Positions 5,246-45,073 are shown, numbered from the stretch's first letter. The stretch: DNA of 45,073 nt from Candidatus Zixiibacteriota bacterium (GCA_046754125.1 JBHHVC010000001.1:1-45073); one strand, 5' to 3'. Numbers and translations: made by a program. Notes: generated by a model not told the origin, from the sequence alone.

Positions 5246-6570
5246 TGACTCTGCCCGAATCGACCTTGTCAGCGGCAACGGTTCAGACTCGCATACGAAA
5301 ACGCATTGTCTCCGCAATAGTCAATTATCTATCAAGCCTGCGTCAGTTCTCCCGCAATGCGAGGCTGTATCTGCTAGGCTCTTTCTTGATGGGAGTAAAC
5401 TTTCACACCTTTCAATTACTGCTCAATCTGTATCTCAAGGAGACCGGCCTTGCGGAAGGAGCGATCGGAAGTGTGATTTCGTCTCGTGCGGTCGGAATGA
5501 CTCTAATGGCTCTACCTGCAGCAATTGTCTTCAGTCGCACGCGCCTGAAGCCAGCTCTCGTGGTAGTATCACTCCTATTTGCATTATTCTCCCTCGGCCT
5601 AATCGCAGCCGATTCAGTGAATATGCTCCGACTGGCATCGGCCCTTACCGGAGGCGCTTTCGCATTCTTGTTCGTGGCATCCGGGCCGTTTTTCATGCGT
5701 AACTCTTCGAAAGTAGAGCGCACTCACCTGTTTGCGGCATCGTTTGGCGTTATGATACTCGCCGGTATGATCGGCTCGCTCGGCGCTGGAAACATGGTCG
5801 ATATGCTGGGCCGAATCGCCGGCAATGCGGCCGACGGCTATCGTTATACTATGGCAGGAGCTATTGGTCTGGGCCTGTTGTCCATAATTCCCTTTTCCCT
5901 GATAAAATCTTCGCGTCCCTCCAAAGAAGAATCGACAATCAGTCTCTCGCTGAAACAATTCCGCAGCCGTTGGCGCCACTATTTTCGCTTCAGCTTTGCG
6001 AACTTTCTGCTGGGAATGGGCGCAGGGTTGATAATCCCGTTTCTGAATCTCTATTTCAAGGATCGCTTCCACCAGTCGCCTTCGGAGATAGGCAGCTTCT
6101 ACTTTGCTGTCCAGTTCTCAATGCTGGCCGGCGCGATGGCCGGTCCTGTTCTGGCCGGACGTATGGGGCTGGTCCGCACAATAGTCTTTACCCAGCTTGC
6201 CTCAATCCCATTCATGCTTACCCTTTCGCACAGCTATATTCTCTGGCTTGCTGCTATAGCATTTGTTGTCCGTGGCGGCCTGATGAATCTGGGCGTGCCG
6301 ATTGTAACTAACTTTGCCATGGAAATGTCCGAAAAGCAGGAACAGGGGCTGATGAACGCCCTTCTAAAGATTTCCTGGACATCAGCCTGGATGATCTCTG
6401 CTGCCGTTGGCGGTCTGTGCATAGAGGCTTATGGCTATACGACAACGATGGATATTGCGGTTTTGCTTTACCTCGCCTCATCTGCAGTGTTCTTTGTGTT
6501 CTTCCGACAATCCGAAACAAAGGGAGATGGCGGCAGCGGTTGGACAATGATTCGACAGAACACGGTCTAA
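5245..6570 (+). CDS. MFS-type transporter (about 12 predicted TM segments), substrate unknown, embedded in the trp operon
   Basis: Hydrophobic ORF with repeated TM-like stretches and a central charged loop (KSSRPSKEES...RSRWRHY), typical of MFS 6+6 topology. Start taken at ATG 5245 (TAATG overlap with the trpD stop). Its stop overlaps the trpC ATG (TAATG at 6568-6572). Confidence 0.8.
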   Translation: MTLPESTLSAATVQTRIRKRIVSAIVNYLSSLRQFSRNARLYLLGSFLMGVNFHTFQLLLNLYLKETGLAEGAIGSVISSRAVGMTLMALPAAIVFSRTRLKPALVVVSLLFALFSLGLIAADSVNMLRLASALTGGAFAFLFVASGPFFMRNSSKVERTHLFAASFGVMILAGMIGSLGAGNMVDMLGRIAGNAADGYRYTMAGAIGLGLLSIIPFSLIKSSRPSKEESTISLSLKQFRSRWRHYFRFSFANFLLGMGAGLIIPFLNLYFKDRFHQSPSEIGSFYFAVQFSMLAGAMAGPVLAGRMGLVRTIVFTQLASIPFMLTLSHSYILWLAAIAFVVRGGLMNLGVPIVTNFAMEMSEKQEQGLMNALLKISWTSAWMISAAVGGLCIEAYGYTTTMDIAVLLYLASSAVFFVFFRQSETKGDGGSGWTMIRQNTV

Positions 6571-10267: not shown

Positions 10268-11281
10268 ATGATAATTGTCATGGACGAGCAGGCGACCGAG
10301 AACCAGGTACAGGCTATCATTGAGCATCTGGTCGACCGGGGGTTTGATATCCATAGATCATCCGGCCGTATGCAGGTTGTTCTCGGCGTCGTCGGCGACA
10401 CCCATCTGATCGATCCGCGCGACTTCGAAGTGCACAAAGGCGTGCACGAGGTCATTCGTATCACCGAGCCATATAAACTTGTTGGCCGAACATTCCGGCG
10501 GGAAGACTCTAAAATCAAAGTTGGTGAGGCGACATTTGGCGGCAAGAAACTCTGTTTGATTTCCGGTCCTTGCGCTGTTGAATCCCGCACGCAGATTAGG
10601 AAGATAGCTCGTCTGGTACGCGAAACCGGTACCCTCCTGCTCCGGGGAGGCGCCTACAAGCCCCGTTCGTCCCCCTATTCCTTTCAGGGGCTTGGCGAGG
10701 AAGGCCTCAAATACTTGAGAGAGGCGGCTGACGAAAACGGTATGGCCGTTGTGTCCGAAGTCATGGACCGCGTGGACATTATCCCTGTCCTCAAGTATGT
10801 AGACATGATTCAGGTCGGTGCCCGCAATATGCAAAACTTCGCACTGCTCAAGGAGTTGGGAAAGGTACAAAAGCCAATCTTACTCAAACGGGGTATGTCC
10901 GCAACTATCAAAGAACTCTTGATGGCTGCAGAATACATCATGGCCGGGGGAAATCATCAGGTCGTCTTATGCGAGCGGGGTATACGGACATTTGAAAATT
11001 ACACCCGTAACACCCTCGACATCTCAGCCATTCCGATCCTGAAAAAACTATCCCACCTGCCTGTTATAGCCGACCCTTCCCATGGAACCGGCATACGCGA
11101 CAAAGTCGCACCAATGGCACGGGCTGCCATAGCAGCAGGGGCCGATGGGCTTATCATCGAGTCCCACTACGATCCGGATTCTGCCCTTTCCGACGGCGCC
11201 CAGACTTTGTATATGGAGCAGTACGAAAAGCTGGTCGCCGAGCTCAGAATAATCGCGACTGCCGTCGACCGCACTTTATGA
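10268..11281 (+). CDS. aroF: 3-deoxy-7-phosphoheptulonate (DAHP) synthase, type I-beta, with an N-terminal ferredoxin-like/ACT-like regulatory domain (paralogue 1)
   Basis: 337 aa. Core motifs [50 protein letters not shown] and ADPSHGTG. About 70 aa N-terminal extension ([21 protein letters not shown]), as in Thermotoga-type enzymes. GAGGAA SD upstream. Confidence 0.9.
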
Positions 11282-13203: not shown

Positions 13204-14049
13204 ATGCCGGGGAATAAGCGAACAACAATTGCAATCTGCGGTTTTGGACTGATTGGTGGCAGTATGGCTTTGGACCTGCAACGTTCTCGCCGCAGCACCG
13301 CCATCTACGCCTGGGATAAACCCTCCGTTCTTGCACGTCTCAAACACGATAAGCGATTCCGCATCAAGAGCGAGCGTACATTTGCCGCAACAGTTGCAGG
13401 GCGGGACATCATTATTCTCTCGGCCAGCCACCGAGCCAACGAGATGCTCCTGAGGCGACTCGCTCGAATGAAAACTGTCGACAACGCCCTGATTCTGGAT
13501 ACGGGAGCTGTCAAACAGCCGATTGTACGAGTGGCAAACATGCTTAACTTGCACGGGAGCACACAATTTCTGCCCTCGCACCCGATGGCCGGACGAGAAA
13601 AAAAGGGATTCGCCAGTGCCGCAAAAGGGCTCTTTGCAGAACATGCCTGGTGCTTCGACGATCAAGTCACGCTAAACAACGTAAATAAGGCCAGACTTGA
13701 CTGGCTCGTTCGGTCTCTGAAGGCAACCCCTTTTGAGGTTGACGCCGCGCAGCACGACGAGATAATGGCCGAGATTTCCCACTTGCCGCAACTGGTGTCC
13801 ACTCTTCTCGGAGCACAGGTCAACGCGAATCTGATACCTCTCGCAGGACCGGGACTGAAATCAATGTTGAGACTGGCCGGATCACCATGGGAGGTCTGGT
13901 CGGAAATCGTTGCGGAGAATCGACAGGAAATCGTACAGTCATTGCGGCTCTTTGAGCGCAACCTGCGCCATGTTACAAAACTGATAGAAAATGAGCAGTC
14001 ACTCAGCGACATTTTCGCGGCTGCAGCCAGGAGTTATCGATGCTTATAG
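13204..14049 (+). CDS. tyrA: Prephenate (or arogenate) dehydrogenase
   Basis: 281 aa. Rossmann [22 protein letters not shown] and ISHLPQLVS motifs of the TyrA family. Confidence 0.85.
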
Positions 14050-15056
14050 TGATGGAGACCAGGGCCACTGAAAAAATGGTGACTAAGGTCTGTGCCGAGA
14101 TCAAACAAATGGGACTTACCGCTCACCCCATGCCGGGAGCGCAGCGTACAGCCATCGGAGTTACCGGCAACAAGGCACAGGTGGATGCCGATCGCATTCT
14201 CGCCCAGCCCGGCGTTCGTGAGATCATACACGTCACCAAACCATACAAGCTGGTCAGTAGGGAGTTCACCGCCGAGAACAGTATTATCGATGTCGATGGC
14301 GTCAAGTTTGGCGGCGATGAGTTTGTTGTTACAGCCGGACCCTGCTCGGTCGAGAGCCTTGAACAATGTATGACCATCGCTGAACAGGTAGCAAAGCACG
14401 GAGCCAAAGTGTTTCGCGGCGGTGCCTACAAGCCGCGCACCTCTCCCTACGCATTTCAGGGGTTGCACGAGGAAGGCCTCAAAATCCTTGCGCAAGTGCG
14501 TGAACGATTCGGGTTGCGGATTGTCACCGAAGCCATTGACACCGAAACTATCGATCTTGTTGCCGAGTACACCGACATCATCCAGATCGGCGCTCGCAAC
14601 ATGCAAAACTATTCACTGCTGCGAAAGGCCGGAAAAACCGACAGGGCGATCCTGCTCAAGAGGGGAATGTCGGCGACTCTTGAAGAGCTCCTCATGGCAG
14701 CCGAGTACATTATGGCCGAGGGAAACCGCCGCGTTATTTTGTGTGAACGAGGCGTGCGGACTTTTGCCGACCACACTCGCAACACCCTCGATCTGTCGGC
14801 CATACCGTACGTCAAGCGCATGAGCCATCTACCCATTATCTCCGATCCGTCGCATGGAACAGGTCGCCGCGACAAAGTAATCCCGTTGTCACGCGCTTCC
14901 ATTGCTGTTGGTGCCGATGGTTTGATTGTCGAAGTGCACAACGACCCCGCCAACGCGCTCTCCGATGGACCCCAGTCGATCACTCCAGATATGTTTGCAC
15001 AACTAATGCAGGAGATTCGCTCGCTCGCTCCTGCTGTTAACAGGACTTGTCCGTGA
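14040..15056 (+). CDS. aroF: 3-deoxy-7-phosphoheptulonate (DAHP) synthase, type I-beta, with an N-terminal regulatory domain (paralogue 2)
   Basis: 338 aa, colinear with 10268-11281: [50 protein letters not shown] and SDPSHGTG. The N-terminal approx 70 aa diverge from paralogue 1. Confidence 0.9.
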
Positions 15057-20934: not shown

Positions 20935-21215
20935 CTCGCCCATCACATTCGACCCGTTCAGCCCGGTGCCCCATTTTCGTGGGCGACCTCTCTTGGTCCG
21001 CCCGACGTCCCCTCTGCCGCCCCTCCACCCAAAACCTCTTGCGCGCAACCAGAACTCGAATACCTTACACCGAATCGTCGTTCCGTACTGACGCCGTACA
21101 CTGAAGTGAAGAAGAGCTGACACTGTCTGAATCCGCACACAAGAATGTCGACCGCGTAACTAGCGGACCTATCCTGAAGACTGTCGCCTCTCTGGCCGTT
21201 CCGGTAACTCTGGGC

Positions 21216-23512: not shown

Positions 23513-24703
23513 TTGACGAAGCGACTGTATTATACGGACTGTTACCTGCTAACCTTCGACGCGACTATTACGGCTTCCAATCAATGCCAGGATCGGTGGC
23601 ATACCCGTCTGGACCGTTCGGCGTTCTATCCCACATCTGGCGGGCAACTGCACGATGCCGGAAAACTGAATGATGTCGCTGTCATAGACGTGATTGAATC
23701 CGACAACGGCGATGTTGTGCATATCAGCGATAGCCCGGTTGGAAAAGCAGGTGATCTGATAGAGGGCGAAGTAGACCCCTTGCGGCGGCGCCGAAACCGT
23801 CAGAAACACACTGCACAGCATATATTCAGCAGGGCAGCGGTTGACCTGTACGATTTTGCAACATTGTCTGTTCATCTAGGCGAGGAGTACGCCGCAGTAG
23901 AACTGGACGCTCCAACTCTGAGCGATGAACAACTTCGTTGTCTTGAAGAAGCCTCTAACGAAATCATCCGAGATAATCAGCCGGTGACGATTCTCCAAGT
24001 CGACGCCGACAAGGCGGCACAATTGCCACTGCGACGTAAACCGGCTCGTTCCGGCAGCCTTCGCATTATCAAGATTGGAGAGCGCGAATACTCGGCCTGC
24101 GGTGGCACCCACTGTTCCTGTACAGCCGAGGTCGGCCTGTTCAAAATCATCGGCGTTGAGAAGATTCGTAAACATGTTCTGGTGAAGTTCATCTGTGGAG
24201 ATCGGGCATCTGACGACTACCGCACTCGTTTCAAAGTCACCGATCAACTCTCCCGACAGTTCACCTGCAACGCTTCAGACCTGCCAGATAAGATTAGATT
24301 GCTGTCGGCCGAGCACAAGCAACTTCGAGCCGAAGTGACAAGAACCCTCTCCGATCAGTTACCGGAGCAGGCGGATAAGTTGGCCTCGCTGGTTTTCGTG
24401 TGCGGAACCCGTCAAATCGTAGCCGCACAGGTCGACAGTCGTTTCGACAAGCTGCTGCACAAGCTGGCTTCGGAAGTTGCCTCCAGAATCGGAGGTATTG
24501 CACTACTGGCAGCAGAAGAAAGGCTGGTTCTGGCCACCAGCAAAACAACCGGACTGCACGCCGGCAATCTGGCCCGCGATTTGGCCGACAGATTTGAATT
24601 AAAGGGCGGTGGGTCGGCAACTGCGGCTCAATTGGGAGGGGCCGATTCTGCTAAACTCAACCAGTATCGGGACGCTCTGATCGAGATGGCCACTAATGTT
24701 TAA
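23513..24703 (+). CDS. alaX: Alanyl-tRNA editing protein, AlaX-L type (AlaRS editing domain plus C-terminal DHHA1-like domain)
   Basis: 396 aa. RSAFYPTSGGQLHD, HTAQHIF (HxxxH), CGGTHC and C-terminal KGGGSATAAQLGG motifs. TTG start with GGGAGA SD 4 nt upstream. Confidence 0.85.
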   Translation: MTKRLYYTDCYLLTFDATITASNQCQDRWHTRLDRSAFYPTSGGQLHDAGKLNDVAVIDVIESDNGDVVHISDSPVGKAGDLIEGEVDPLRRRRNRQKHTAQHIFSRAAVDLYDFATLSVHLGEEYAAVELDAPTLSDEQLRCLEEASNEIIRDNQPVTILQVDADKAAQLPLRRKPARSGSLRIIKIGEREYSACGGTHCSCTAEVGLFKIIGVEKIRKHVLVKFICGDRASDDYRTRFKVTDQLSRQFTCNASDLPDKIRLLSAEHKQLRAEVTRTLSDQLPEQADKLASLVFVCGTRQIVAAQVDSRFDKLLHKLASEVASRIGGIALLAAEERLVLATSKTTGLHAGNLARDLADRFELKGGGSATAAQLGGADSAKLNQYRDALIEMATNV

Positions 24704-24769
24704 GAGCCTGTTGATAAAGTTCGTAAGTGGGATTCTTGCAGGTCGGGACCCCTGTGGTTCCGACGACGC

Positions 24770-24848
24770 GGTTCTTGTGGCTGGCAAACCTTCTGGTTTG
24801 CCCCTTGACATAATCCGTAGGGCGGGTCCGTCTTCGTACCCGCCACCG
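24770..24848 (+). repeat. Intergenic structured repeat, unit A (79 bp)
   Basis: GGTTCTTGTGGCTG, then hairpin GGCAAACC-TTCT-GGTTTGCC (24783-24802), then CCTTGACAT, then a second hairpin GGCGGGT(24821-24827)/ACCCGCC(24838-24844). Homologous by eye to units B, C and D. Confidence 0.8.
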
Positions 24849-24950
24849 GGTTCTTGTGGCTGGCAGACCTCCGGTCTGCTGCTTGACATCAGTCGTTCGT
24901 GGAACGCAAGAATCCTGACAGAGGGGCGGACGAGACGTCTGCCGCCCACG
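24849..24950 (+). repeat. Intergenic structured repeat, unit B (longer variant)
   Basis: GGTTCTTGTGGCTG, then hairpin GCAGACC-TCC-GGTCTGC (24863-24879), then TGCTTGACATCAG, then an insertion, then AATCC and the GC hairpin GGGCGG(24924-24929)/CCGCCC(24942-24947). Sits immediately upstream of the lptD start. Confidence 0.8.
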
Positions 24951-24959
24951 AAATCGAGA

Positions 24960-27900
24960 TTGTCACCAATCCGTAACGCGCTGGCCCGCATAATCACAGC
25001 CGCAGCTGTTGCGGCATTGATGTTCGCCGCAAACGTTCAGGCAGGGACAAACGCGGTCGATAGCCTGAAACTTCGTCACTCGGAACAATTCGAGTTCATG
25101 ATGGTCGATGGCCATCAGGTCTTCTACGTAGTGGGCAACGTAGATTTTGAAACATCGAGCGGACACATTTACTGCGATTCGGCCGTATGGCGCAAGGGGG
25201 AGATCGTACATCTCAAAGGAACTGTCGTCGTCGATGATTCTGCCTACTATCTCTCTGCCGATTCGGTCGATTATGATATGGTCACTGGCGACGCTGTGGC
25301 AAGAGGCGAGCGCGTCGAGTTGTGGTCATACAACGATTCACTCTATGCGGTCGGACACCACGCCGACTACTCGCGGACCGATAGTTCGTTTTTCATGGAA
25401 GAGCGGCCAATACTATTCCTGAGGTATCCCGACAGCGCCAATATGATCGAAGTGATAGCGGACAGGATCGATTATGACGCTAAGGTCCGTTACGCCGAGG
25501 CGCAGGGAGATGTCAAGATAACCTCCAGGGACATCTCCACCCATTCCGGATGCGCCATCATGCATTTGAGTACAAATACTCTGGACCTGTTCGATCAACC
25601 GACAGCGACCAGCAAGAAATCCAACATCAGCGGGCAGTTGATTTCAATCCTCTATGTCGACAAAGAGCTGCGAACTATCGATGTCCTCGACTCTGCCCAC
25701 GCCGAGTTTGAAGTGCCGACGGATTCGACAGAGACATATTTTGATCGGTCCGAGCTGTCGGGTCGCAGAATAATTCTGAGTTTTGTCGACGGCAACTTCG
25801 ACAACGTACTCTGCTACGGTCAAGCGTACTCATGGTACTACCCGTCCCCCAGGGGAGGCATCAAAACTGAAGAGAACACTGTCTCCGGTGATACCGTGCA
25901 TTTGCAGTTCGATCGGAGCGAGCTGTCGGCGGTGAAGGTAAACGGCGGAGCGGTCGGCATATATGTGACCACAAAAAAGTCAGTCTCCGATACCTCTTTC
26001 GTATCCCAGGTCGATACTGTCGATTACAAGTCCGAGTTTATCGACTACCGACTTCGCGATTCGGTTATAACTTTGACCAATGCGGCCGAGGTAACCTCCG
26101 GTGCAGCCTCGCTTAAAGCCCATCAGGTCCTCTTCGATACTCAGGAGCGTACCATTGAAGCGCTATCGGCAAAACTGGTATCAGACAGCGCCGCTCCGAA
26201 GGGAGAATTCGCGTCCAAGTTGCAGCCGAACGATATACCGGTACGGCTCCAGGACGGCAGCGATGTCATTCTGGGTGACTACCTGATCTATTCCATAGAC
26301 AGCGAAAAAGGAAGACTCGTCCAGACGAAATCCGACTACCAGGAAGGCGTCTACTATGGAGAGCGGCTGTACCGGGAACAAAAGGACATTTTCTACATCG
26401 ATGACGGACGTTACACCACATGCAGCAACGAGGAGCCACATTTCCACTTTCACTCGAACAACATGAAATTGATCGAGGGCGAAAAACTGATCGCCAAACC
26501 GGTAGTGTTCTACATCGAACGCCTGCCCATTCTGGCCCTGCCCTTCTACGTGTTTCCGCTCAAGAAGGGCAGGCACTCCGGGATTCTGCCCTTCCAGTTT
26601 GGCAAGTTTCAACGGGGTGATCGCTACGTGCAAAACGTCGGCTACTACTGGGCCGCGTCAGAATACTGGGATTTGCAAACATCGTTTGACTACTACGAGG
26701 TGCGCCGATCGCTGTCTTTCAATTCGGCCCTTCGCTTTAAGTCGCGATATCGCTTTGACGGCTCCATGAGCGGCAGCTATACACGCGAGACCAGTTTCAA
26801 CAGTAGTCAGGCAGTGGAATCAAACCGCAATCGCTGGGTTCTCAATGGTGCCTACAACCACACCGTAACGCCATCGTTTACTGTCAGAGCCTCGGGGCAC
26901 TTTCAGTCGGACAAAACATACTATCAGGACTTTTCGCAAAACCTGGACGATCGACTCAATCGCAACATCCGGTCCCAGGTATCGTTCAATAAGAAATTCG
27001 GCAGAAAGACATCCATTTCCGGCAAACTCATTCACGATGTAAACCTCGACACAGAATCGCGCACCGACCAGTTGCCGGTCTCGGTCTCGCTCCCCACAAT
27101 CTGGCCGTTTGGAAGCAGCAGCACTGACGAGAACGGGACAACAGTAACAAAATGGTACCAGTCGACAACCTTTCGTTACTCCCCAGGCATAACCAACTTC
27201 TCGAGCAGAGTGACGCAAGACTCGACCATTACCGACACGATTTCAGGCCTGACCGACACTGTCTCCTGGCGCAGCCGAAAGAAATACTCAAAGATAACCC
27301 ATAACCCGGCCATCACGCTGCCACGGATAACGCTGTTGAAGTACTTCAATTTTACGCCGCGCTTCAGCTACAGCGAGACATGGTATAAGATCTATCAGAC
27401 AGACCAGTCCGACGATGCGGGCATTGATGCCTCTACTACCTACCGCACGTTTTCCTACAATGGCGGTATCTCGGCCACCACCAAGCTCTATGGGACGCTC
27501 TCGCCGAACCTGTTCGGGCTGAGCGGGATTCGCCATGTCATCACGCCGACTGCAAACTACTCATGGTCGCCCGAATTTGATCGACATAAAGATATCCAGA
27601 GCTTTGCAGGCGGTGGGAACCGAAAGGGCAAAAGCTCGATACTTTCAGCCTCGCTGAGCCACCTATTTCAGGCTAAGATCAAGAATGGAGAGAGCGAGAA
27701 AACCCTCGATTTGTTTTCGGTGACCTCCTCCTTCAGCTACAATTTCGAGGACAAAGATAGCCCATTTTCGGATTTGGCGACATCTTTTCGCTCTGACGTA
27801 CTGCCGAAAATTCATCTGGACGGAAGTGTGAATCACACTTTTTACGATCCGGACCAGCCCGGTGAGAATGTCCTTAACTTCTGGTCTCCCTGGCTGACCT

Positions 27901-28797: not shown

Positions 28798-28825
28798 AGG
28801 CAGGGCGCTTGCCCTGCCTTTTTTT
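28798..28825 (+). terminator. Rho-independent terminator of hup
   Basis: Perfect 9-bp stem AGGCAGGGC / GCCCTGCCT, GCTT loop, then a run of 7 T. Begins 21 nt after the hup stop. Confidence 0.9.
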
Positions 28826-42328: not shown

Positions 42329-44306
42329 GCTCGTTTCGGTCCGGCCTCGCTGTGTCAACAAAGCGTGGGTTTGTCTGCTTCTGTTGCTTTTGCAGCTGTC
42401 TGCTGCGGAAGCTGCCGCTTCTGGCGAGTCGATTAAGGTCATTTATCCCAAACCGGGTCAGACTATTGGCGCGGTCGATTCCACGTTCATACTGGGCCAT
42501 CTGACTGTCGACAACCCGGCCGAATATGATTTAACCGTAAACGATCAGCCTGTGGCGGTGCACGAAGATGGTGGGTTTCTTGCGTTCCTGGCTATAGCGT
42601 CGGGCGAGTTTACGTTTTACCTGAAGGCCCGATCGGTCATTGACGTTGCAAGCGAACGTGCAGATGACGGCGCGCTGTCGACCCATCTCGATCCGGGGAT
42701 TTTGACTCTCAACCTGTCGGTGTCGGTGCCCCGACCGGGAATGCCCGTAGGAATTGACTCACTTGTGATTGTCGACGAGTACGATCGACCATCTGGTGAC
42801 CTGGCGCTTGCCACAGGAGATGTACTGCGGACGTCATTTTTGGGTACTCCCGGCTGTCGGGCATGGTTCAGTATTGGTGATGTAATTGACTCGGTGGCGA
42901 TGGCTGAGACTGGGCAGCAATTCCAGCCTTATTGGGGTAAGGCGGTGTTTGGTCGCGGAGCTGTGCCGGATTCACTAAAACTTAAGGGTGTTTATGCAGG
43001 TTTTCTTTCGGTAGCCGATTCTCTAGTCACTTCCCAGGACACGATCAGGTTTCATCTTGCGGCACCAGATAAGGCTGAGATTGTCTGCCGGTATCTTTTG
43101 CCACCATACGAGTTGATGGACTCGGTGGCGCTGAAGTATTTGCATCTGCCTGATACGGCCGTCAGCGTTCGATCTACTTACTCGGTATCGCTAAATGACC
43201 ATGCATATCCGTTCACGGTTCGATTTACGGATTCAGTGCAGATCGTTCGTCTTGGTCCGCGCAAGGGTTACTTGTCCATATTTCAGCCTGAGGGAGTTCA
43301 GGCGCTGGCGGTTGGTGCGGAGGGCGACTGGTACCGAGTCAGATTGTCGGCCACCCGCTTCGGCTGGGTGAACAAGAACTCGGTCAAGCGATTGCCTAAG
43401 GGCATCCTACCGCCACGGTCCTATGTGACATCAATCAGAACATATGACGAGCCGGATAGATTGCGCGTCGAAGTTGGCCTGAAAGGGCAACATCCCTTCC
43501 GGGTGATCGAGGAAACGCGACGGCGTGTTCGGATTCGGCTGTATGGGGTTACCAGCGACACCGACTGGATCCGATATGACGAGGCATCCGATTTGATCGA
43601 TCTGGTGACCTGGTCACAAATTGAGAACGACCTCTACGAATTGACGCTGAATCTGACAGAGAGTATCTGGGGGTACGATGCTTACTACGAAGGGAACTCG
43701 TTCTATTTCCAGCTGAATAAACCGCCCTCCAGTACCAGCAAGATAAAAGGAAAGCGGATTGTGATAGATGCCGGTCACTCAAGTGATCCCGGTTCCATAG
43801 GGCCGACCGGATACACCGAGGCGGAAGCAAATCTTGCAATTGCACTGGCGTTAGAGAAATATCTGCAATCCAAAGGTGCCCAAGTTGTTATGACCCGATC
43901 TGACACCAGTGATGTGCCTTTGTATGATCGCCCGGCAATTGCCAACCTACACGATGCCGACTTGTTCGTTTCCATTCACAACAATGCCCTGCCTGATGGC
44001 GTCAATCCGTTTGTCAACAACGGAACATCGGCGTACTATTACCATCCACACTCGATTGACCTGGCTCGGTCAATTCATGCCGAAATGGTGAAACACACAG
44101 GTCTTAGCGATCATGGTCTCTTTCACGGGAATCTTGCCGTTAATCGTCCGACTCAGTATCCGGCGGTATTGATAGAGTGCGCGTTCATGATTATTCCCGA
44201 GCAGGAGGCACTGCTCAAGACTGATCGGTTTCGTGACAGAGTGGCGCGTGCGATAGGCAAGGGAATCGAGAACTTCCTGAAAGAGTATGACAGTGGGCGA
44301 CGTTAA
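42300..44306 (+). CDS. N-acetylmuramoyl-L-alanine amidase (Amidase_3) with a long N-terminal region that includes an SH3b-like module
   Basis: C-terminal IVIDAGHSSDPGSIGPTGYTEAEANL, VSIHNNA and LIECAFM motifs. SH3b-like GDWYRVRLSATRFGWVNKNSV. Signal-like WVCLLLLLLQLSAAEAAA. Start ATG 42300 (ATG 42255 also possible), overlapping the epimerase end. Confidence 0.85.
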   Translation: MLSRDIPQTRLVSVRPRCVNKAWVCLLLLLLQLSAAEAAASGESIKVIYPKPGQTIGAVDSTFILGHLTVDNPAEYDLTVNDQPVAVHEDGGFLAFLAIASGEFTFYLKARSVIDVASERADDGALSTHLDPGILTLNLSVSVPRPGMPVGIDSLVIVDEYDRPSGDLALATGDVLRTSFLGTPGCRAWFSIGDVIDSVAMAETGQQFQPYWGKAVFGRGAVPDSLKLKGVYAGFLSVADSLVTSQDTIRFHLAAPDKAEIVCRYLLPPYELMDSVALKYLHLPDTAVSVRSTYSVSLNDHAYPFTVRFTDSVQIVRLGPRKGYLSIFQPEGVQALAVGAEGDWYRVRLSATRFGWVNKNSVKRLPKGILPPRSYVTSIRTYDEPDRLRVEVGLKGQHPFRVIEETRRRVRIRLYGVTSDTDWIRYDEASDLIDLVTWSQIENDLYELTLNLTESIWGYDAYYEGNSFYFQLNKPPSSTSKIKGKRIVIDAGHSSDPGSIGPTGYTEAEANLAIALALEKYLQSKGAQVVMTRSDTSDVPLYDRPAIANLHDADLFVSIHNNALPDGVNPFVNNGTSAYYYHPHSIDLARSIHAEMVKHTGLSDHGLFHGNLAVNRPTQYPAVLIECAFMIIPEQEALLKTDRFRDRVARAIGKGIENFLKEYDSGRR

Positions 44307-44322
44307 GTCACGAGGGGGACAT

Positions 44323-44544
44323 GTGTCCCGACGTCTCTGGCTCATCTATGTCGCCATGCTTCTGGCTGGCGTCATGGTGCTCGCTCATTCGTTTGGATGG
44401 ACAGGCCTGGATCGCTGGACGGCGCGGCTCGGTATCGCGCTCGTGTACTCTGCGCTTGCTCTGTCAGCGGGCAGGGGGAAATGGGTGGGGAGTGTCGCGA
44501 CCGGGATAATCTGGCTGCCGACAGTTGTTTTCTTGCTAGTGTAA
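44323..44544 (+). CDS. Small hypothetical membrane protein (about 3 TM segments)
   Basis: Three hydrophobic stretches. GTG 44323 is preceded by GAGGGGGA 4 nt upstream. The ORF-track ATG 44287 would overlap the amidase end. No family recognised. Confidence 0.35.
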   Translation: MSRRLWLIYVAMLLAGVMVLAHSFGWTGLDRWTARLGIALVYSALALSAGRGKWVGSVATGIIWLPTVVFLLV

Positions 44545-44953
44545 GTTGTGCCATAGTCAGCCGATAGCCAGACTGCCTGCAGCATCGCAGAGTCAGATCG
44601 ATCCCTATTCTTCACTTCAATACTGGAGTATTACCATCTTGTATGGCCACGATTTCGCTTGACCTCCGATTGTCCGGTTTATAGATTTTGGTACAGTAGA
44701 TCGGTTACGATCCGACTGGAGGGAATGTTATCGAGAATACTAAGAGAAAGCCTTTCTTGGCTTACTTGCAGGCTCATGCTCTGCACTTGGCTGTCATGCC
44801 GGTTCTGCGCGCTATAAAGCGGCCATTGGTCGACAAGCACGCGGCTTCCAATCGCCGTCACTCTGCGGAGATGCCGCAAAGACATCGTTGACGCTGTTAG
44901 TTGAGACTGCTGGCGGGTTCGAGGACGGACGCTGCCTACAAAGATGGTTGGCG

Positions 44954-45018
44954 GAACTGTTGGAGCGGGTCGAATGACGCCTGATGTCATGCAGCAGACC
45001 GTGAGGTCTGCCAGCCAC
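44954..45018 (-). repeat. Intergenic structured repeat, unit C (65 bp; same family as units A/B, opposite strand)
   Basis: Its reverse complement GTGGCTGGCAGACCTCACGGTCTGCTGCATGACATCAGGCGT matches unit B at about 39 of 42 aligned positions by eye. Hairpin GCAGACC(44994-45000)-GTGA-GGTCTGC(45005-45011). Confidence 0.85.
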
Positions 45019-45073
45019 GAACTGTTGGAGCGGGTCGAATGACGCCTGATGTCATGCAGCAGACCGTGAGGTC
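45019..45073 (-). repeat. Intergenic structured repeat, unit D (identical to unit C, truncated by the window end)
   Basis: 45019-45073 is identical to 44954-45008 (55 of 55), giving a 65-bp tandem period. The window ends inside the hairpin. Confidence 0.85.

Follow-up and report, generated by a model that had tools for sequence, protein, structure and literature searches.

We analysed the spacer of 256 nt (24704-24959) between an alaX-type gene and lptD in a 45,073-bp DNA window of Candidatus Zixiibacteriota bacterium (GCA_046754125.1 JBHHVC010000001.1); the window corresponds to an entire contig of a hydrothermal-vent metagenome. The spacer is probably a cluster of repetitive extragenic palindromic (REP)-type units, similar to bacterial interspersed mosaic elements (BIMEs), whose units come from a dispersed family resembling REPINs (REP doublets forming hairpins). 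REPs are defined by a conserved 5' GT[A/G]G, sometimes 2-3 further nucleotides, and then a palindrome (PMC3686654, PMC3479197). A REPIN consists of two inverted REPs with a variable spacer between them, and tandem REPIN arrays are known (PMC3337134). An earlier note on this DNA had put a REP/BIME-like element first among the possible roles of the spacer. This role is backed by the anatomy of the units, their copy number, their inverted homology and an empty site in a sister strain.

Copy number and anatomy of the repeat units

Copy number was gauged by assembler word depth, with Logan contigs of metagenome runs aligned to the region. Runs X1-X4 represent the strain of the window, and X5-X6 represent a sister strain. 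In X1, word depth was 1,481-1,641 over 24856-24880 and 1,377-1,418 over 24922-24949, compared with 15 in the flanks. Values in X2 were similar, both runs reaching about 95-110 times the flank depth; in X5 a depth of 1,289 was reached against a flank of 20 (about 65-fold). The depth steps up exactly at the GTGG that begins at 24856 and steps down right after the CCAC that ends at 24949, which is GTGG on the minus strand. Positions 24707-24743 and 24896-24915, the latter in the linker between the two high-copy hairpins, are single-copy. From 84 to 96 contigs per run match the region, and at least 10 long contigs (2-15 kb, with a genome-like depth of 13-18) end in the core of the repeat or contain it. 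About 100 copies appear to be present in the genome of the Zixibacterium. The proposal of the earlier note that the units belong to a dispersed family is thus borne out by the roughly 100-fold excess of word depth over the flanks.

Units of the family (GTGGCTGGCAGACC, GTGGGCGGCAGACG) are built of GTGG (GTAG in one subtype), 1-3 nt and a GC-rich palindrome with a stem of 7-8 bp. The GT[A/G]G foot is found as GTGG at 24777-80 and 24856-59 and, on the minus strand, at 24946-49 and 45015-18, and as GTAG at 24817-20. All sequence motifs described in the earlier note are present where it had placed them, with five hairpin units in the spacer. One of these, h1, lies upstream of unit A and had not been described. 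Four units (h1, A, h2 and B) are forward and the fifth, h3, is inverted. The earlier note had parsed the spacer into two homologous units of two hairpins each. This parsing is not supported, and REP-type units in both orientations describe the spacer better; the second hairpins of A (GGCGGGT 24821-27 / ACCCGCC 24838-44) and of B (within 24921-24949) have no detectable homology to each other. The high-copy replicating unit most likely consists of core B and the inverted h3, and h2 is a different, low-copy type.

The similarity of h3 to the cores was significant only when one of the sequences was reverse-complemented (p 0.001 with core C from the right end of the window and 0.015 with core B); direct comparison gave 0.15-0.25. 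Since the second unit resembles the first only as its reverse complement, the pair probably forms a REPIN-like inverted doublet, and the copy numbers of core and h3 are similar. What multiplies is most likely a doublet, some 80-100 nt long, consisting of a forward GTGG-CTG-GCAGACC-loop-GGTCTGC-TGCTTG, a linker and a related inverted unit ending in ...CGTCTGCCGCCCAC. In the usual copies elsewhere, which were read from loose ends of contigs, the core ...TTGACATCAG is followed by AAAC with a few bases and then by GGGGCAGACG. One linker of 10 nt, AAACTCTTGA, was recovered in this way; the B-h3 linker in the spacer is 28 nt long, compared with the usual length of about 10 nt. At another locus the cores stand in direct tandem with a 22-nt spacer, and h1 occurs beside cores at other loci (contig joints 24764>24851 and 24892>24738). 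Folded jointly, unit A and h2 reach z -5.2. The only relative of h2 adjoins the array at the right end of the window and is identical to it at 24 of 29 positions.

For the spacer, the folding energy as sense RNA is -115.3 kcal/mol (z -4.25), and the fold of the DNA has z -4.27; none of 200 shuffles was as good, and the antisense RNA reached only z -2.6. Three of the 22 distinct perfect hairpins of at least 7 bp in the 45-kb window are inside the 256-nt spacer. When eight units of two genomes were aligned, 95% of the cells of the 8-bp stem proved to be paired, as against 31-46% in slid controls, and three of the eight stem pairs show compensatory double changes (G-C/A-U, C-G/U-A, C-G/G-C). The covariation score was reached by 0 of 500 shuffles. 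An A-T versus G-C difference at one stem position between units A and B, from which selection on structure had been proposed, is real (alignment columns 17/30), and the compensatory changes across these units, small as the sample is, support selection that keeps the structure of the hairpin in addition to its sequence. Read-out of the aligned contigs yielded no per-position variants at a 2% share, so that covariation rests on the eight units of the two genomes.

A 10-bp inverted repeat, GGATTCTTGC (24730-39) and GCAAGAATCC (24906-15), had been taken to bracket most of the array. The repeat itself is exact, and by our estimate a stretch of 256 nt would contain about 0.03 such pairs by chance. 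Its role as a bracket or element boundary is not supported, the edges of the insertion-deletion described below being at 24679 and 24951. The TTGACAT of the units falls in their less conserved tail. A sigma-70 reading of TTGACA was rejected, as no -10 element follows it, and so was a sigma-54 reading of TGGCA...TTGC, the spacing being wrong. A scan of 24704-24959 detected neither a sigma-70-like promoter nor a terminator-like site (hairpin followed by a T/U tract), and there were 0 matches to Rfam covariance models at the gathering score in the whole window. A canonical intrinsic terminator, AGGCAGGGCGCTTGCCCTGCCT followed by TTTTTT, was seen at 28798-28825, directly after the HU gene; the host thus uses U-tract terminators, unlike the REP hairpins.

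The recurrence of the repeat in inverted orientation at the right end of the window, reported in the earlier note, was confirmed as a 65-nt unit whose second copy, cut off by the end of the window after 55 nt, is identical to the first over that length. Word depth at the array junction (17-57, versus 14-16 in the flanks) suggests an array of about 2-5 units. The repeat family accounts for the breaks in contigs of the host, the window contig itself ending inside the array. Extension of the contig through its last gene recovered only a 998-bp Logan contig. The h2-type unit beside the array looks decayed, judging from its poor predicted fold. A sister contig in X5 tracks the window (44400-44909) up to 44909 and then continues with 375 nt of unlike sequence, so that the right-end repeat cluster is also polymorphic between strains. 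To the left of the array, an open reading frame (ORF) at 44287-44544 encodes a membrane-like product of 85 aa that belongs to no family. Between this ORF and the array lie about 400 nt (44545-44953) with no convincing ORF and no Rfam match. A CRISPR (clustered regularly interspaced short palindromic repeats) array was considered and rejected, because the right-end units are identical with their spacer included and units occur singly and inverted at many loci; no cas genes were found among the scanned genes of the window.

Table 1. Coordinates of features of the alaX-lptD region and of the right end of the window
Feature	Coordinates	Strand	Basis
alaX-type gene (AlaX-L-like tRNA editing protein)	23513..24703	+	Pfam tRNA_SAD, DHHA1, tRNA-synt_2c; synteny with relatives
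273-nt block, present in the window, absent in the sister strain	24679..24951	+	X5/X6 contigs; boundary ambiguity 2 nt
Left junction copy ATCGAGATGGCCACTAATGTTTAA, with leftover ATG 24696 overlapping the alaX stop	24680..24703	+	18/24 identical to 24953-24976, first 8 exact; relatives share the ATGnnTAA overlap
Hairpin h1, 9-bp stem with one G-T pair, TTCTTGCAG before it; low-copy	24742..24764	+	folds; depth ~2x flanks
REP-type unit A, diverged core GTGG-CTG-GGCAAACC-TTCT-GGTTTGCC-CCTTGACAT; stem GGCAAACC 24783-90 / GGTTTGCC 24795-802; TTGACA 24805-10	24777..24811	+	depth ~1.8x flanks
Hairpin h2, GTAG-GGCGGGT-(10-nt loop)-ACCCGCC-AC; low-copy type	24817..24846	+	homologous to right-end unit 44908-44941
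REP-type unit B, high-copy core GTGG-CTG-GCAGACC-TCC-GGTCTGC-TGCTTG(ACATCAG); stem GCAGACC 24863-69 / GGTCTGC 24873-79; 3-nt loop TCC; TTGACA 24883-88	24856..24892	+	word depth
B-h3 linker, unique sequence, with small palindrome CGTTCGTGGAACG and GCAAGAATCC	24893..24920	+	depth 15 = flanks
REP-type unit h3, high-copy, inverted; minus strand GTGG-GCG-GCAGACG-TCT-CGTCCGC-CCCT	24921..24950	-	word depth; CGTCTGCCGCCCAC identical in L009
Right junction copy ATCGAGATTGTCACCAATCCGTAA, holds the lptD start	24953..24976	+	orthologous to the sister's single junction
lptD, 1,136 aa	24960..28370	+	gene caller product P0001; Pfam LptD_2, LptD_N; homologue alignment
h2-type unit GTAG-GCAGCGT...ACCCGCC, beside the terminal core array	44908..44941	-	depth ~2x flanks
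Tandem array, 65-nt unit (core C GTGGCTGGCAGACCTCACGGTCTGCTGCATGACATCAG + 27-nt spacer); contig ends inside	44954..45073	-	copies identical over 55 nt

Elsewhere in the window, two paralogous DAHP (3-deoxy-D-arabino-heptulosonate 7-phosphate) synthase genes (DAHP_synth_1 plus a ferredoxin-like domain; 10268-11281 and 14040-15056) were observed 3.8 kb apart in an aromatic amino-acid gene cluster. They are 77% identical over a common stretch of 74 nt.

The empty site of the sister strain and the start of lptD

The sister strain is about 91.5% identical to the window in the flanks of the spacer. One contig in X5 (2,655 bp, depth 19.8) and one in X6 (470 bp) fuse position 24678 directly to 24952, and the sister therefore does not have the intervening 273 nt. 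On either side of the block stands one copy of an exact direct repeat of 8 nt, ATCGAGAT (24680-87 and 24953-60), which extends imperfectly as ATCGAGATGGCCACTAATGTTTAA versus ATCGAGATTGTCACCAATCCGTAA with 18 of 24 positions identical and the stop codons in register. This imperfect 24-nt direct repeat means that the region where alaX and lptD overlap was duplicated. The left copy contains the last 5 codons of alaX (MATNV*) and completes the gene (...IEMATNV*), and the right copy carries the working start of lptD. In the sister, alaX ends with ...IEIVTNP* at the TAA 24974-76, and the lptD TTG overlaps alaX by 17 nt. The AlaX proteins of the two strains accordingly end differently, in ...IEMATNV and ...IEIVTNP, the last five residues being encoded by different copies of one ancestral sequence (24688-24703 vs 24961-24976).

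Divergence at 6 of 24 positions between the two copies suggests that the duplication of the junction is old. The block may have been gained by the strain of the window or lost in the sister through recombination between the repeats, and the data fit either course. A foreign alaX-lptD junction was considered as the donor of the left copy; nucleotide comparison with six relatives was uninformative on this point. The presence/absence polymorphism of this composite block between two close strains is evidence of mobility, as expected of REPs and REPINs.

The start of LptD is TTG 24960, and not ATG 24696. The in-frame TTG opens a complete signal peptide, MSPIRNALARIITAAAVAALMFAANVQA, and it is from this position that about 120 homologues, 1,090-1,232 aa long, can be aligned; all named ones are from Zixibacteria, the closest match to the LptD of the window being 58% identical. 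The earlier note had held that the spacer is not an N-terminal extension of LptD, and here it was right: the gene caller, the homologues and the signal peptide all fit 24960, and the sister strain is without the stretch. Initiation at ATG 24696 would add 88 residues read through the repeats, as in the Rickettsia palindromic elements found inside genes. That ATG overlaps the alaX stop just as the lptD start of relatives does, and the 264 nt between it and TTG 24960 are in frame and stop-free, for which the probability is about 0.05, multiplied by one third to allow for the frame. We nevertheless consider a coding role of the repeats very unlikely. The gene caller picked TTG 24960 (product P0001), all listed homologues begin there, the signal peptide at this position would become internal, and the stretch is missing from the sister strain. 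Two reverse frames are stop-free as well, which indicates that the GC-rich spacer is simply poor in stop codons, and a six-frame peptide search with the translated repeat returned no repeat-bearing protein (E <= 10).

Related units in other Zixibacteria

The gene order FAA-hydrolase, alaX, lptD, HU, ftsK is conserved in relatives. An alaX/lptD overlap of 8-14 nt (ATGnnTAA), which represents the ancestral state, is found in five related contigs (L006; L007 and L008, which share the same LptD protein; L010; L011; L012). In L013 the two genes are 32 nt apart, and L009 is without alaX. L009, whose LptD is 56% identical to that of the window, carries three GGGGCAGACG-loop-CGTCTGCCGCCCAC units and one variant, giving GTGGGCGGCAGACG units at 4 places, all of them intergenic. 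Head and 5' arm of these units are identical to those of the inverted unit of the window at 14 of 14 nt. Both loci of the window and all 4 h3-type units of L009 are extragenic. Other GTAG- or GTGG-headed palindromes are also carried by L009, and a GTAG-headed inverted doublet was found in L006. Four other related loci have no such units above chance, which makes the distribution of the families patchy.

Two long intergenic spacers of L009 (13480-14010 and 17325-17713), one of them just downstream of lptD, are packed with varied GTAG- and GTGG-headed palindromes; REP-like clusters thus recur near lptD in the phylum. In L006 (5546-6274) an AT-rich gene of the UDG family (5613-6155, minus strand) lies between inverted GTAG-headed units, one doublet (5546-5610) and one singlet (6247-6274). 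The gene of a REP-associated tyrosine transposase (RAYT) would be expected to be bracketed in this way, but the cargo here is a different one; the syntenic place in the window is only a gap of 282 nt (20935-21215). The REP-flanked gene, which encodes 180 aa, was examined as a RAYT candidate and rejected, since its product is a member of the UDG family and no Y1 transposase.

A search of genome-contig and metagenome-contig collections with the pattern GTGGCTGGCNNNCCNNNNGGNNNGCNNNNTGACAT returned chance matches only; the 4-nt loop of the pattern misses the dominant form with a 3-nt loop, and the collections do not include this organism. The matches L001-L003 represent one coding site. A scan of viral contigs gave no match. 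A high-GC soil-metagenome contig (L004, 213-290) contains GTGGCTGGCACCCC..GGGTGGC..TGACATCAG and, after it, the palindrome AAGGATTCTTcAAGAATCCTT, reminiscent of GGATTCTTGC/GCAAGAATCC. We judge this resemblance to be due to chance, although L004 could be a distant relative.

Proposed mechanism, alternatives and known repeat families

RAYTs are related to the Y1 HUH transposases of the IS200/IS605 family (PMC3479197). On the REPIN-like reading, the GTGG foot with its hairpin would be recognised as single-stranded DNA, cut and copied in trans by a single-copy RAYT-type Y1 (HUH) transposase encoded elsewhere. The cluster would have grown at its site by insertion and local duplication. With alaX and lptD overlapping in this lineage, both genes would have stayed intact only if the overlap was duplicated in the process, and this would explain the flanking 24-nt repeat. 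At this locus the block uncouples the translation of lptD from that of alaX, to which it is presumed to have been coupled, and 256 nt of stable hairpins now stand inside the operon, ahead of lptD. Any effect on the expression of lptD or alaX would be a putative by-product.

Several points weigh against this reading. No member of the Y1 transposase Pfam family (PF01797) was found among the scanned genes of the window or the genes listed for related loci, which cover about 160 kb. Classical REPINs are made of REPs that are nearly identical, but the halves of this doublet belong to different subtypes. When B-h3 is folded as DNA, two local hairpins are preferred over one long REPIN hairpin, and the long hairpin was seen only in the minimum-energy fold of the RNA. 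The polymorphic block of 273 nt includes about 60 nt of unique sequence and is no single clean REPIN insertion. The word depth behind the copy number is summed over the contigs of a metagenome, so some copies may come from co-occurring strains, and the covariation was scored on only eight sequences.

The main rival is a miniature inverted-repeat transposable element (MITE) derived from an insertion sequence with a DDE transposase. Such an element would have the two GTGGSYGGCAGAC ends as terminal inverted repeats and spread by cut-and-paste or copy-paste with a target-site duplication. A length of 80-100 nt and the copy number fit a MITE, the ends of B-h3 are imperfect inverted repeats (about 14 of 17 positions, TTCGTGGCTGGCAGAC vs TTCGTGGGCGGCAGAC), and the block is flanked by the exact 8-nt repeat. 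That repeat, however, is part of the diverged gene-overlap duplication, whose length of about 24 nt and degree of divergence are too great for the product of a transposase, and no direct repeat surrounds doublet A-h2 or doublet B-h3. Each supposed end in turn consists of a palindrome on a GT[AG]G foot, the signature of REPs. Units are found singly, in direct tandem and in mixed clusters, as in REPs and BIMEs, and several distinct GT[AG]G-headed palindromes coexist in relatives. We therefore regard a MITE as unlikely. Correia/NEMIS elements of Neisseria, which are MITEs, and the ERIC, RUP and BOX elements are also short, non-coding, high-copy, modular, hairpin-forming, co-transcribable and strain-polymorphic. 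They differ in having longer terminal inverted repeats with defined target duplications (TA for Correia) or unrelated modules, and none has a GT[AG]G foot with a palindrome.

Alternatively, the spacer could serve the host in cis and regulate lptD as a structured leader, an attenuator, an mRNA-stability element or a set of binding sites for a protein recognising GCAGAC-N5-GTCTGC. Such a role would agree with the strong structure of the sense strand (z -4.25, versus -2.6 for the antisense strand), the half-sites GCAGAC/GTCTGC shared by both high-copy hairpins and the conservation of the sequence in distant Zixibacteria. In Escherichia coli, REP/BIME elements bind IHF and gyrase and stabilise upstream mRNA. 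Against it, the sister strain and nearly all relatives do without the element and keep the alaX-lptD overlap (the exceptions being the relative without alaX and the one with the 32-nt gap), and about 100 near-identical copies occur at unrelated loci. The absence of an Rfam family and of terminator-like or promoter-like sites points the same way, and a host-serving function is improbable in our view. The same observations, namely no Rfam match, no terminator-like site, a block absent in the sister and about 100 copies, tell against the structured 5' leader, small RNA and terminator that the earlier note had listed as further roles.

The REPIN-like reading is in keeping with what is known of the REPs and REPINs of Pseudomonas, Stenotrophomonas and Enterobacteria, which are mobilised by RAYT (TnpA-REP) proteins. 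Common features are a 5' GT[A/G]G, 1-3 nt and a GC-rich imperfect palindrome (the P. fluorescens REP GTGGCGAGGGGGCTTGCCCCCG is comparable to GTGGCTGGCAGACCTCCGGTCTGC here); copies in the order of 10^2, extragenic wherever visible; probable inverted doublets with a variable linker, together with singlets and tandem arrays; presence/absence polymorphism in close strains; and persistence of the unit across diverged lineages. The host is unlike the known ones in belonging to the phylum Zixibacteria (FCB group), for which the literature searched makes no mention of REPs. Further differences lie in the doublet: its halves are distinct subtypes about 67% alike with the closing pair flipped, hybrid doublets having been reported absent in P. 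fluorescens SBW25, and its predicted DNA fold is not that of one long hairpin. Another difference is that a single core can be repeated in direct tandem with spacers of 22-27 nt. E. coli BIMEs likewise bring together several REP-type subtypes, mixed in orientation and joined by short linkers, in one intergenic operon spacer, but their Y and Z REPs are unrelated in sequence to the units described here, in which a strict alternation of orientation is not seen. The ends of IS200/IS605 elements and of their miniature derivatives (PATEs) have subterminal imperfect hairpins and a 5' guide tetranucleotide as well, and are read as single-stranded DNA by a Y1 HUH transposase. In IS200/IS605 the left-end and right-end hairpins are on the same strand, whereas the high-copy units here are mutually inverted.

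The unit GTGG-GCG-GCAGACG...CGTCTGCC is near-identical across lineages with 56% LptD identity and stands in hetero-doublets. A speculative proposal, to which we give little credence, is that this reflects either a REPIN-RAYT partnership of unusual age, inherited vertically by both partners, or the use of GCAGAC-N5-GTCTGC by a conserved host protein. In the latter case the repeat would be a domesticated signal for genome structuring or operon tuning and no mere selfish parasite, here setting the ratio of alaX to lptD expression, possibly with read-through from ATG 24696.

For annotation, these results place the start of the essential lptD at TTG 24960 and show that long upstream extensions of ORFs in this genome can be repeat clusters. 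Contig breaks driven by the repeats matter for the binning and finishing of Zixibacterial metagenome-assembled genomes. The sister strains offer a natural experiment, with and without a structured block of 273 nt in an overlapping and presumably translationally coupled gene pair. If the family is what it probably is, REP/REPIN replicators, studied mainly in Proteobacteria, extend to an uncultivated phylum. Discovery of a cognate RAYT would make the deep conservation of the unit useful for dating REPIN-RAYT partnerships.

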